5,293 bases of DNA from a virus (taxonomy: Duplodnaviria > Heunggongvirae > Uroviricota > Caudoviricetes), in the IMG/VR virus record IMGVR_UViG_2695420658_000009; one strand, written 5' to 3'. Numbering within the stretch: the stretch's first letter is position 1; every line of letters begins with the position of its first letter. The translations under genes and the position numbers were made by a program. The notes below the pieces were generated by a model, which worked only from the letters and a program-made list of their open reading frames with translations, had not been told where the DNA came from and ran no database searches. Shown in pieces: positions 307 through 5,254 of this stretch.

Positions 307-862
307 NNNNNNNNNNNNNNNNNNNNNNNNNNNNNNNNNNNNNNNNNNNNNNNNNNNNNNNNNNNNNNNNNNNNNNNNNNNNNNNNNNNNNNNNNNNNNN
401 NNNNNNNNNNNNNNNNNNNNNNNNNNNNNNNNNNNNNNNNNNNNNNNNNNNNNNNNNNNNNNNNNNNNNNNNNNNNNNNNNNNNNNNNNNNNNNNNNNNN
501 NNNNNNNNNNNNNNNNNNNNNNNNNNNNNNNNNNNNNNNNNNNNNNNNNNNNNNNNNNNNNNNNNNNNNNNNNNNNNNNNNNNNNNNNNNNNNNNNNNNN
601 NNNNNNNNNNNNNNNNNNNNNNNNNNNNNNNNNNNNNNNNNNNNNNNNNNNNNNNNNNNNNNNNNNNNNNNNNNNNNNNNNNNNNNNNNNNNNNNNNNNN
701 NNNNNNNNNNNNNNNNNNNNNNNNNNNNNNNNNNNNNNNNNNNNNNNNNNNNNNNNNNNNNNNNNNNNNNNNNNNNNNNNNNNNNNNNNNNNNNNNNNNN
801 NNNNNNNNNNNNNNNNNNNNNNNNNNNNNNNNNNNNNNNNNNNNNNNNNNNNNNNNNNNNNN
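307..862. other. masked/unresolved bases (556 N)
   Basis: Run of n in the input. By context it hides the fibre stop codon and most of the plus-strand tfa gene. Confidence 1.
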
Positions 863-2440: not shown

Positions 2441-2494
2441 TGGCGGTTTCTGGCCTGCATGGCATGATTTGTGCTTTTGGACGGGAGATTCAGC

Positions 2495-2821
2495 GTGCTG
2501 ATTGGCTATGTAAGGGTATCAACAAATGACCAGAATACAGACCTGCAACGAAACGCTCTTGTTTGTGCAGGATATGAACAAATATTTGAAGATAAATTAA
2601 GCGGAACAAGGACAGGCCGACCTGGATTAAAACGTGCTTTAAAGCGCCTTCAAAAAGGTGACGCACTGGTTGTCTGAAAACTGGACTGACTGGGGCACTG
2701 TATGCGGCATCTTGTCGTGCTGGTGGTGGAAGCCTAGAAAAAGTATCGGGTGTTGCTGAACCGTGTTGATACATCAACTGCACCTGATATTGAGTGGCCT
2801 ACGAACCCTGTCAGGGAGTAA
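2495..2821 (+). pseudogene. pin: pin/gin-family serine DNA invertase, N-terminal 60 codons intact, then nonsense codons and an in-frame fusion to the 3' end of a tfa gene
   Basis: GTG at 2495 follows a GGGAGA Shine-Dalgarno (2483-2488). Translation VLIGYVRVSTNDQNTDLQRNALVCAGYEQIFEDKLSGTRTGRPGLKRALKRLQKGDALVV* matches the Pin/Gin N-terminus including the catalytic-serine motif YVRVSTNDQ. In-frame continuation is [45 protein letters not shown]. Stops are at 2675, 2687, 2735 and 2819. The last about 30 codons are a Tfa C-terminus (…[24 protein letters not shown]…), not invertase. Confidence 0.7.
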
Positions 2822-2993
2822 TCATTGGGATTATGCCGCAGCACGTCTTAAGCANCTTAGATGGTAAATGTCTCGCCTGTGCTATATTTTGTTTTTCGGT
2901 TAGTTAAATATCGTACGTTCATATTTGAACGTTCTGCCGGAATGCATTATCAATAGAGGTAAAGTCGCAACCCCAAATCGTAAAGGAAACCGT

Positions 2994-3018
2994 AGCACGT
3001 CTTAAGCAAGAACGTGCT
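2994..3018 (-). terminator. possible intrinsic terminator downstream of the methyltransferase gene
   Basis: Inverted repeat agcacgt (2994-3000) / acgtgct (3012-3018) with an 11-nt loop, 11 nt after the methyltransferase stop. On the minus strand it is followed by the U-rich stretch UUUCCUUUACGAUUU. Stem is short and the U-tract is interrupted. Confidence 0.3.
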
Positions 3019-3029
3019 GCGGTTGGATG

Positions 3030-3848
3030 CTATTTTTTCCCTGAAGCGGAAAACATTACTACAGTACCTTGAACCCTGGTTTTAACATTCTCGAAATGCT
3101 CTGAGAGTATATGTGTTAAGCCTTCTTCGGAATCTTTTGTGTTTGAAAAGATGCCTTTCTGATTGTAAATGCGCATCAGTTTTTGACCGAAGCTATTGTG
3201 CACAACTCCATCGCCAAGAATTGTGGCTCCGTATAGAGTTCCATCGTCAGTTAAGGCCTGCGCCGCATTGCGTATTACACAGCTTTTTGTAGATATATTT
3301 CCAGGCAGGCAGTGAAGAAGGTAAAACATGGAAATGGAATCAAATTGACCATGTAACGCCGCGGGATAAGGTTCAAAAACATCATGGCTAATTTTATGTT
3401 TAATTTTTGATTCCCCAGCCCTTGTAGATGCCGCGTTCAGGCTAGCTTCGTTCAAATCCATTAAAGATATCAGACTACTCTCAGGTACGTGAGTAAGGTA
3501 AAACCCAGTTCCAACACCAATATCCAGATGGTTGTTACCTAAATGTTCCAGAAAGTGTGGAAGAAGGTGTTCCTTTGTAGGACATCCCCATGCAAGCCGA
3601 TTTGATACTCCCAAAACCCACCAGTCATAAAGCTTTAGGGTAAGTGGTGTGTAAATTTTAGCCCCATCATCTGTGTTTNNNNNNNNNNNNNNNNNNNNNN
3701 NNNNNNNNNNNNNNNNNNNNNNNNNNNNNNNNNNNNNNNNNNNNNNNNNNNNNNNNNNNNNNNNNNNNNNNNNNNNNNNNNNNNNNNNNNNNNNNNNNNN
3801 GTATGCTTCGATACAGCAGGAGCCGAATGGCTGGAAGACCGTCACCAC
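3030..3848 (-). CDS. class I SAM-dependent methyltransferase (small-molecule/O-MTase-like; no DNA-MTase motifs seen); N-terminal part partly masked
   Basis: ORF of 272 codons with stop TAG at 3030-3032. It has the SAM-binding motif I HLDIGVGTGFYL followed by an acidic strand end (LISLMDLNE) and a later FDSISMFYLLHCLP segment, the canonical Rossmann-fold MTase order. No (D/N/S)PP(Y/F/W) or PCQ motif is present. The start is uncertain: GTG at 3846-3848 with no clear SD, and bases 3679-3800 are N. Confidence 0.65.
   Translation of the reverse strand: MVTVFQPFGSCCIEAYXXXXXXXXXXXXXXXXXXXXXXXXXXXXXXXXXXXXXXXXXNTDDGAKIYTPLTLKLYDWWVLGVSNRLAWGCPTKEHLLPHFLEHLGNNHLDIGVGTGFYLTHVPESSLISLMDLNEASLNAASTRAGESKIKHKISHDVFEPYPAALHGQFDSISMFYLLHCLPGNISTKSCVIRNAAQALTDDGTLYGATILGDGVVHNSFGQKLMRIYNQKGIFSNTKDSEEGLTHILSEHFENVKTRVQGTVVMFSASGKK
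3679..3800. other. masked/unresolved bases (122 N) inside the methyltransferase 5' region
   Basis: Run of n in the input. Confidence 1.
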
Positions 3849-3879
3849 ACAGTTCTACATCCAGGAATTTAGTGAGTAT

Positions 3880-4230
3880 ANNNNNNNNNNNNNNNNNNNN
3901 NNNNNNNNNNNNNNNNNNNNNNNNNNNNNNNNNNNNNNNNNNNNNNNNNNNNNNNNNNNNNNNNNNNNNNNNNNNNNNNNNNNNNNNNNNNNNNNNNNNN
4001 NNNNNNNNNNNNNNNNNNNNNNNNNNNNNNNNNNNNNNNNNNNNNNNNNNNNNNNNNNNNNNNNNNNNNNNNNNNNNNNNNNNNNNNNNNNNNNNNNNNN
4101 NNNNNNNNNNNNNNNNNNNNNNNNNNNNNNNNNNNNNNNNNNNNNNNNNNNNNNNNNNNNNNNNNNNNNNNNNNNNNNNNNNNNNNNNNNNNNNNNNNNN
4201 NNNNNNNNNNNNNNNNNNNNNNNNNNNNNN
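3880..4230. other. masked/unresolved bases (351 N) between the methyltransferase and the Rha-proximal ORF
   Basis: Run of n in the input. All three listed ORFs crossing it are open only because N cannot encode a stop. Confidence 1.
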
Positions 4231-5121: not shown

Positions 5122-5155
5122 TCACCACCTCTGACGCCAATCAGGGAGGTGGTGA
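5122..5155. promoter_or_regulatory. inverted repeat with 10-bp perfect arms in the rha leader/upstream region
   Basis: tcaccacctc (5122-5131) and gaggtggtga (5146-5155) are exact reverse complements separated by 14 nt; an inner tga/tca pair extends the stem. Confidence 0.3.
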
Positions 5156-5254
5156 GACGTACAGGGTTGGCGTAACCGGTCATCACAAAACCCGGCGCGG
5201 ATTTCTCCGCCCCTGCACGCCCCACCATAATGCGAATGTGGCAATGCTTAACGC

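Follow-up and report, generated by a model that had tools for sequence, protein, structure and literature searches.

Pin-type invertases can have defence cargo next to them, as with mcrA and pinE in e14, and lambdoid morons of the lom, bor and ompT type are opposite-strand or autonomously expressed genes of the late or b region with their own promoter and terminator. The gene described here has likenesses to both and lies at positions 3030 to ~3690, on the minus strand, of a 5,293-nucleotide (nt) stretch of tailed-phage DNA (IMG/VR record IMGVR_UViG_2695420658_000009; this whole stretch is referred to as the window). A described counterpart is ybcY of the DLP12 prophage of Escherichia coli K-12, where records at 577-580 kb match the gene and its upstream spacer with 98.8-98.9% nt identity. 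The two loci have the same divergent spacer and the same sandwich of two fragments of tfa, the tail-fibre-assembly gene. However, the DLP12 copy, which sits between its tfa fragments upstream of appY and ompT, is a frameshifted pseudogene, whereas the window copy is intact over its 215 visible codons, and the outer neighbours are nohD/terminase remnants and appY/ompT in DLP12 but a dead pin gene, the small RNA (sRNA) gene CssrB and Rha/ash genes in the window. The name ybcY for the DLP12 pseudogene is that of published gene orders (PMC3946193); the RefSeq record gives the feature no gene name.

We consider it likely that the window carries at this position an intact member of the YbcY family (PHROG 2132), which encodes a single-domain, cytoplasmic class I S-adenosylmethionine (SAM)-dependent methyltransferase of 218-222 amino acids (aa), and that the gene is autonomous cargo (a moron) at the tail-fibre end of a lambdoid prophage. 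The protein matched PHROG 2132, a family annotated as of unknown function, over its full length (E = 4.2e-157, residues 5-222 on profile positions 1-218), and the gene is 99% identical to copies annotated as "class I SAM-dependent methyltransferase" in E. coli genomes. The methyltransferase is already known, as ordinary prophage cargo of an annotated but uncharacterised family. The gene and its spacer were found at a nt identity of at least 98% in 3836 of 5426 complete E. coli genomes (71%), with up to 4 copies per genome, and in 14 lambdoid phage records the gene lies between int and the tail-fibre genes, with lom, ompT and a hydrolase gene as neighbours; among these are the plaque-forming phages ev243, 2G7b and Turner. 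The unit consists of the following parts, in which positions inside masked stretches are projected from unmasked relatives and hence approximate:

3030-3698, minus strand: coding sequence of the YbcY-family class I SAM-dependent methyltransferase, with its TAG stop at 3030-3032, an annotated ATG at ~3696-3698 and a likelier start at the second Met, ~3684-3686 (218 aa)
3504-3524, minus strand: motif I (DIGVGTG), the SAM-binding glycine loop, in which D59, G61, G63 and G65 are invariant in 50 homologues
3699-3765, minus strand: AT-rich divergent spacer with the predicted methyltransferase promoter and 5′ untranslated region (UTR), wholly masked, projected from relatives and uncertain by ~11 nt
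2988-3024, either strand: strong hairpin 6 nt past the methyltransferase stop (-23.6 kcal/mol on the plus strand, -18.4 kcal/mol on the minus strand)

Five runs of N interrupt the window (307-862, 1000-1476, 2855, 3679-3800 and 3881-4230), of which the last two (122 nt and 350 nt) lie inside and beside the 5′ end of the gene. On the minus strand the frame stays open for 215 codons from the TAG to the mask edge at 3678, and 213 of these 215 residues match the protein of E. coli sequence type 131 (ST131) strain EC958, the differences being V53L and K208R. In unmasked relatives (EC958, an enteroinvasive E. coli (EIEC) strain, two functional phages, K-12 and ten further genomes) the open reading frame (ORF) starts at an ATG 20 nt into the first mask and encodes 222 aa; the second Met is the start in most homologues, in some gene calls and in the PHROG profile, which gives 218 aa. 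The 218-aa product is probably the true one, since the placement of the predicted promoter puts the first ATG in the 5′ UTR, an arrangement with which both the invariant Met at residue 5 and the beginning of the PHROG profile agree. On this reading the ATGGTGA around the annotated first ATG provides a GGTGA Shine-Dalgarno sequence. A preliminary description of the window had assigned the gene 272 codons and a GTG start at 3848, but that frame had been read through the Ns, and in unmasked relatives of 218-222 codons the ORF cannot reach the GTG. The G+C content of the gene is 41%.

The same description had recognized an orphan class I SAM methyltransferase as candidate prophage cargo, with a GxGxG motif I and none of the catalytic motifs of DNA methyltransferases, on the opposite strand beyond a dead invertase and with masked bases beside and inside its 5′ end, and all of this is upheld. 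Motif I reads DIGVGTG, and neither (D/N/S)PP(Y/F/W) nor PCQ was found. The acidic residues D81 (LMDLN), D106 (HD) and D120 (FDS) are invariant or nearly so in the alignment of 50 homologues, which contains 52 invariant columns, among them columns of the SAM-binding motifs and of family-specific blocks. The protein passed the Pfam gathering thresholds for Methyltransf_12 (37.5 bits against a cut-off of 30), Methyltransf_23, Methyltransf_25 and Methyltransf_11. The sequence and fold features of class I methyltransferases, namely motif I, the acidic residues of β2 and motifs III-IV, and a (modelled) seven-stranded α/β fold with a match to curated family models, are present. As judged from a ratio of nonsynonymous to synonymous substitution rates (dN/dS) of 0.10-0.11 against Citrobacter and Klebsiella orthologues, the family is under purifying selection. 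Among 19 full-length phage-type copies none has an internal stop, and 7 of their polymorphic codons vary only synonymously versus 5 that change the amino acid.

Homologues at 50-75% identity occur in Citrobacter, Salmonella, Enterobacter, Klebsiella, Yersinia, Erwinia, Pantoea, Proteus and Photorhabdus and likewise in the Pasteurellaceae, the Pseudomonas syringae group, the Xanthomonadales and the Oxalobacteraceae; a profile search returned 419 clusters (at the 50% identity level) with E <= 1e-30. In Salmonella, Enterobacter, Citrobacter, Yersinia, Proteus, Pseudomonas and others the gene is a lone chromosomal gene. Short contigs of two metagenome-assembled genomes labelled Bacillus sp. and Planococcaceae (L022 and L031) also contain the E. 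coli prophage segment in copies that are 99-100% identical; contamination during binning is almost certainly the cause.

AlphaFold modelled the protein, with a predicted local distance difference test (pLDDT) score of 90, as one Rossmann-like domain that has a helical lid at its N-terminus. By sequence the protein matched juvenile-hormone acid O-methyltransferase (JHAMT) and UbiG best among PDB entries, and Foldseek placed bacterial phosphatidylethanolamine N-methyltransferase (PmtA) at the top rank, although no match stands out; a search of a viral structure library returned generic methyltransferases only. The modelled seven-stranded Rossmann-like fold and helical lid would be common to JHAMT, UbiG, PmtA, phosphoethanolamine N-methyltransferases, DhpI and RebM, and the small-molecule and lipid methyltransferases also have motif I, the acidic loop after β2, an "FDxVxxxxxLH" motif and a partner-free single domain. 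In contrast, the invariant blocks of the YbcY family (YDWWVL..SN..AW.C.T, LLHCLPG and YNxKGIFSN) are without counterpart in those enzymes. NCBIfam gave no meaningful match: against the PmtA, RquA and CpaM models the protein scored 16-18 bits versus cut-offs of 175-390, and the equivalog cut-off for PmtA was therefore far from reached. PmtA-like lipid methylation was accordingly set aside as a specific call, since the fold scores are no better than those of dozens of small-molecule methyltransferases, and is kept as one possibility. Our best inference is that the protein binds SAM and acts, independently of a partner, on a metabolite, a lipid or an exogenous compound and not on DNA; this substrate class is suggested by the sequence and fold matches, a near-neutral isoelectric point (pI ~7) and the lack of a DNA-methyltransferase motif or extra domain. 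The likeliest chemistry would be methyl transfer to an O, N or C atom of such a compound, the lipid in that case being one of the envelope.

The gene is flanked in the window by the following elements:

3766-4035, plus strand: tfa 3′ fragment (the unreadable neighbour of the preliminary description), of which 3801-3880 is visible and the end lies inside the second mask, 4035 being a minimum projection
2842-3021, plus strand: CssrB sRNA gene, convergent with the methyltransferase gene and outside its unit (Rfam RF02799, 191.9 bits versus a gathering threshold of 76, model positions 1-180 of 180)
2724-2854, plus strand: left copy of a direct repeat formed by a tfa 3′ end and a half-hairpin, 88.6% identical to EC958 locus L001 7374-7505; the right copy lies within the mask 3881-4230
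2471-2677, plus strand: truncated pin-type serine recombinase (the dead invertase), with a PF00239 Resolvase N-terminal domain (E = 5e-15 over 68 aa) followed by a stop

The visible bases 3801-3880 are 96-99% identical to the plus-strand tfa 3′ fragment of relatives (L001 7237-7316 and equivalents). In EC958 this fragment of 89 aa matches PF02413 (Caudo_TAP, E = 6e-25) and is annotated as an incomplete tail fiber assembly protein. The order upstream of the methyltransferase gene in relatives is a 56-nt spacer and then the plus-strand, 89-codon tfa fragment, beyond which the sequence varies by prophage (DinI in EIEC, appY in K-12, a hydrolase gene in ev243). The minus-strand gene that had been proposed to end at TAG 3855-3857 is thus the antisense of the tfa fragment, and the tightly coupled two-gene operon built on it is an artefact of the N runs, its upstream member being a tfa pseudogene fragment on the opposite strand; a real, conserved same-strand frame does not lie directly upstream. 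The corresponding minus-strand ORF of 116 aa in EC958 is likewise antisense to the tfa fragment and had no Pfam match. Hidden Markov model (HMM) searches, which had been suggested for both genes, placed the methyltransferase in generic Pfam families and returned the PF02413 tfa fragment in place of a partner.

When all ORFs within four genes of the methyltransferase gene were clustered over 70 loci from 28 genera, no neighbour family was common across genera, save for one generic dehydrogenase-like cluster at varying positions, so that the neighbour proposed as a partner proved absent or unrelated at homologous loci. Six contexts inspected gene by gene contained no conserved partner and a lone methyltransferase gene in unrelated, mostly non-phage surroundings. 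Two sets of candidates were rejected. An α/β-hydrolase gene adjoins the methyltransferase gene in phage ev243, Erwinia and Enterobacter, but the three hydrolases are mutually unrelated and the gene is absent elsewhere, which points to coincidence; and a crotonase-like neighbour in Pseudomonas and, in Proteus, a PAPS-reductase-like/ParB-like pair reflect local synteny that does not cross genera. In the Proteus loci (L073, L078, L089, L091, L092 and L094) the methyltransferase gene is divergent from two genes that, judged by eye, are PAPS-reductase-like (~411 aa) and ParB-like (~213 aa), an arrangement specific to Proteus.

In EC958 the divergent spacer (L001 7146-7201, 56 nt) has a G+C content of 27%. 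A TTGTAA-17-TTTAAT element, in the general form TTGNNN-17-TNTAAT, occurs 59-63 nt before the second-Met ATG at 15 of 67 loci from nine Enterobacterales genera, where ~0.5 loci would be expected by chance. The flanking genes differ among these nine genera (within L020-L059) despite the fixed promoter-like element, which suggests that the methyltransferase gene takes its own predicted promoter into new surroundings. The element is absent in Pseudomonas, Proteus and Erwinia, in each of which another upstream sequence is conserved within the genus. Genomic systematic evolution of ligands by exponential enrichment (SELEX) in K-12 located a site for the RpoD holoenzyme and an H-NS site in the ybcY/tfaX spacer (PMC3946193). 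At the other end of the gene, the hairpin at 2988-3024 has z-scores of -4.6 and -4.8 for the two strands, with 0 of 200 shuffles as stable, and is common to the ends of CssrB and the methyltransferase gene; it is likely a bidirectional terminator for the methyltransferase gene on the minus strand and for CssrB or tfa on the plus strand. The methyltransferase gene is a predicted monocistronic unit, transcribed against the phage late genes and ending at this hairpin, and would be expressed from the prophage subject to H-NS silencing.

The locus in this way combines the features by which morons are recognized: a positionally conserved promoter-like element, a site for RNA polymerase by SELEX, a terminal hairpin and variable presence (14 phage records and several prophages). 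Like lambdoid morons, the gene has a G+C content below that of its flanks and is found beside other morons (Lom, OmpT). Unlike theirs, its product is a cytoplasmic enzyme and not an envelope protein.

The methyltransferase gene of EC958 is bracketed by two direct repeats (L001 6325-6471 and 7374-7521) of ~148 nt that are 89-90% identical and 1049-1050 nt apart, each consisting of a tfa 3′ end and the hairpin that follows it. The same repeat-gene-repeat unit occurs with different outer neighbours, namely appY/ompT in DLP12, ipaH/DinI in EIEC and Shigella, Rha/ash in ST131 and hydrolase/OmpT/int in ev243, which fits exchange by homologous recombination at conserved tfa ends. The tfa repeats probably let the gene move between lambdoid prophages, to judge by these arrangements, and within Escherichia and Shigella it may have spread by homologous recombination at the ~148-nt repeats.

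CssrB was reported as a Northern band of ~180 nt in Shigella flexneri 2a 301, between SF2021 and SF2022, with its 3′ end assigned by terminator prediction (PMC3071730). From the match to CssrB and its position, the window is probably Shigella DNA, equivalent to ~2.044-2.049 Mb of strain 301, and the methyltransferase gene is probably SF2021. The 134-nt core of CssrB (2856-2989) is flanked in the window by a 19-nt direct repeat (2836-2854 and 2990-3008, 95% identical). The core is absent from the E. coli copies of the window's prophage and was found in 9 E. coli genomes (the one inspected is EIEC), in S. flexneri and in two further E. coli contig records. At the EIEC locus (L002 4978-5153) a perfect MxiE box (GTATCGTTTTTTTACAG) precedes ipaH and the core lies just distal to that box, whereas in the window the core is present and the MxiE box and ipaH are absent, with the junction at the single N at 2855. 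The exact junction (across 2838-2880) was not found in the bacterial genome or viral contigs searched, and a search with the Rha protein of the window returned only the arrangement of the ST131 type.

The readable parts of the window are 98-99.8% identical to a lambdoid prophage end that is present in many E. coli genomes, as exemplified by the prophage adjoining trpA in EC958 (L001). The left part of the window is made up of tail-fibre and tfa cassettes of either orientation; these are followed by a 26-nt site at 2415-2440, the N-terminus of the pin-type recombinase, a tfa 3′ fragment, the CssrB stretch (180 nt), the methyltransferase gene on the minus strand, a second tfa 3′ fragment and, at the right end of the window, a DUF4376 fragment, a gene of the Rha family, the beginning of one of the ash family and a C4 antisense RNA. 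Positions 7-2440 are relics of an invertible tail-fibre segment, in which the plus strand has the C-terminus of a tail fibre together with tfa, and the minus strand (1506-2267) has an alternative tfa together with a fibre C-terminus (gp37_C). The 26-nt site, which lies next to the dead invertase and which we take to resemble the gix/pix crossover sites of Gin- and Pin-type invertases, is unique within the window, and a single visible copy suggests that the invertible segment is frozen. In relatives the counterpart of the recombinase is annotated as a pseudogene. The C4 antisense RNA (RF01695, 75.9 bits) is on the minus strand at 5145-5232, corresponding to L001 8602-8676 (minus strand), within the ash/Rha genes of the prophage end or upstream of them, and in the EC958 relative an isrK sRNA (RF01394) lies just past the position matching the window end; C4 RNA, isrK and Rha at a prophage end make up the known immunity-type C4/IsrK-Rha/Ant module. 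The masks at 1000-1476, 3679-3800 and 3881-4230 are 23, 11 and 90 nt longer than their counterparts (454, 111 and 260 nt) in every close relative examined, so that either the masking did not preserve length or the window copy contains small insertions.

Other explanations of the locus were weighed against autonomous cargo. The preliminary description had read the methyltransferase gene and an upstream minus-strand gene as a coupled operon, a restriction or defence module in the slot adjacent to the invertase. The position beside a pin-type invertase remnant, a minus-strand frame in the window that runs through the N run and ends 7 nt before the GTG, and the 116-aa minus-strand ORF at the same place in relatives all speak for it, and the gene does share with invertase-side defence cargo a location at a prophage end, distal to a pin-type invertase, and an orientation against the late genes. 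We nevertheless regard this explanation as very improbable, given that the GTG is out of reach of the ORF, that the supposed partner is the antisense of a Pfam-supported tfa fragment past which the sequence varies, and that no neighbour is conserved in 28 genera. The surplus 11 nt and 90 nt in the masks are too short for an extra minus-strand gene. Moreover, the sole PADLOC hit was mad2 (E = 0.0091, 12.9 bits), which does not amount to a defence system, and no nuclease was found in a Pfam scan of the locus. In contrast to invertase-side defence cargo, the methyltransferase gene is a separate unit bracketed by tfa repeats and is also found at invertase-free loci (ev243, DLP12 and the EIEC locus). 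Somewhat more credible, yet still improbable, is a nucleic-acid methyltransferase, either an orphan DNA enzyme with an anti-restriction or epigenetic role or an rRNA or tRNA enzyme affecting antibiotic susceptibility or translation. DPPY/NPPY and PCQ motifs are absent from the protein, as are target-recognition and RNA-binding domains, and it is one compact domain of 218 aa with a neutral pI; its Pfam hits are to the small-molecule-type families Methyltransf_11/12/23/25 and to no DNA-methyltransferase family, enzymes of small molecules or lipids head both the sequence and the fold matches, and no NCBIfam rRNA or tRNA methyltransferase model matches.

The slot downstream of lambdoid tail fibres holds type III secretion system (T3SS) effectors, and the gene adjoins ipaH with its perfect MxiE box in EIEC and S. 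flexneri, both of which would suit virulence cargo of an exchangeable effector locus, that is, an ipaH-linked protein that is either secreted as an effector or modifies effectors as an enzyme. This is the least probable of the explanations considered, as the gene occurs in K-12 and in 71% of E. coli, a set that for the most part lacks the Mxi-Spa T3SS, has chromosomal orthologues in housekeeping surroundings in Enterobacter, Klebsiella, Proteus and Pseudomonas, and adjoins ipaH only in the EIEC/Shigella arrangement; it has its own predicted sigma-70-type promoter and no MxiE box. A neutral passenger, captured once from an enterobacterial chromosome, carried along by tfa-repeat recombination, mostly silenced by H-NS and decaying, is more plausible than any of these, though we still think it unlikely. 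It would account for the frameshifted K-12 copy and the many partial members of the 90% cluster, for near-identical copies (at least 98% nt identity) that suggest recent spread, for the H-NS site in the spacer, for the low G+C content of gene and spacer (41% and 27%), and for the surrounding pseudogene debris. On the other hand, all 19 full-length copies sampled are free of internal stops, the polymorphism leans synonymous, the gene is kept in functional plaque-forming lambdoid phages, and for a neutral passenger a prevalence of 71%, at up to 4 copies in one genome, is high.

Some of these observations, with others, weigh against the reading of the gene as intact, autonomous and functional cargo. 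Given the frameshift in K-12 and the many partial members in databases, selection on prophage copies may be weak, and the high prevalence could be due to hitch-hiking. The structural matches are generic (template modelling (TM) scores of ~0.6, at most 21% identity) and do not tell O-, N-, C- and S-methylation apart. The start and the promoter of the window copy are masked, within the masks that are 11 and 90 nt longer than in relatives; the predicted promoter is supported only by sequence conservation and in vitro binding, and a generic scan of the locus for promoters and terminators gave counts no higher than in shuffles. The literature holds no functional study of, or experiment on, any member of the family under the names ybcY, SF2021 or DLP12 methyltransferase that we could find.

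As the locus stands, its apparent novelty, a hidden partner gene, arose from reading through masked bases and matters little. The methyltransferase gene itself is among the commonest cargo genes of E. coli prophages, intact in most strains and broken in K-12, which makes K-12 a natural null background in which it could be tested. The repeat-gene-repeat layout points to conserved tfa 3′ ends as recombination handles that may shuttle cargo among lambdoid prophages. More tentatively, and with about as little confidence as we give to the neutral passenger, the methyltransferase may be a single-gene lysogenic-conversion factor that shields the lysogen, including by exclusion of phages or colicins, through methylation of an envelope lipid or of an antibiotic or toxin from outside. 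If this were true, the prevalence of ~71% in E. coli would reflect selection rather than hitch-hiking on tfa recombination, and it would provide the first function for a family that is spread across the Gammaproteobacteria.

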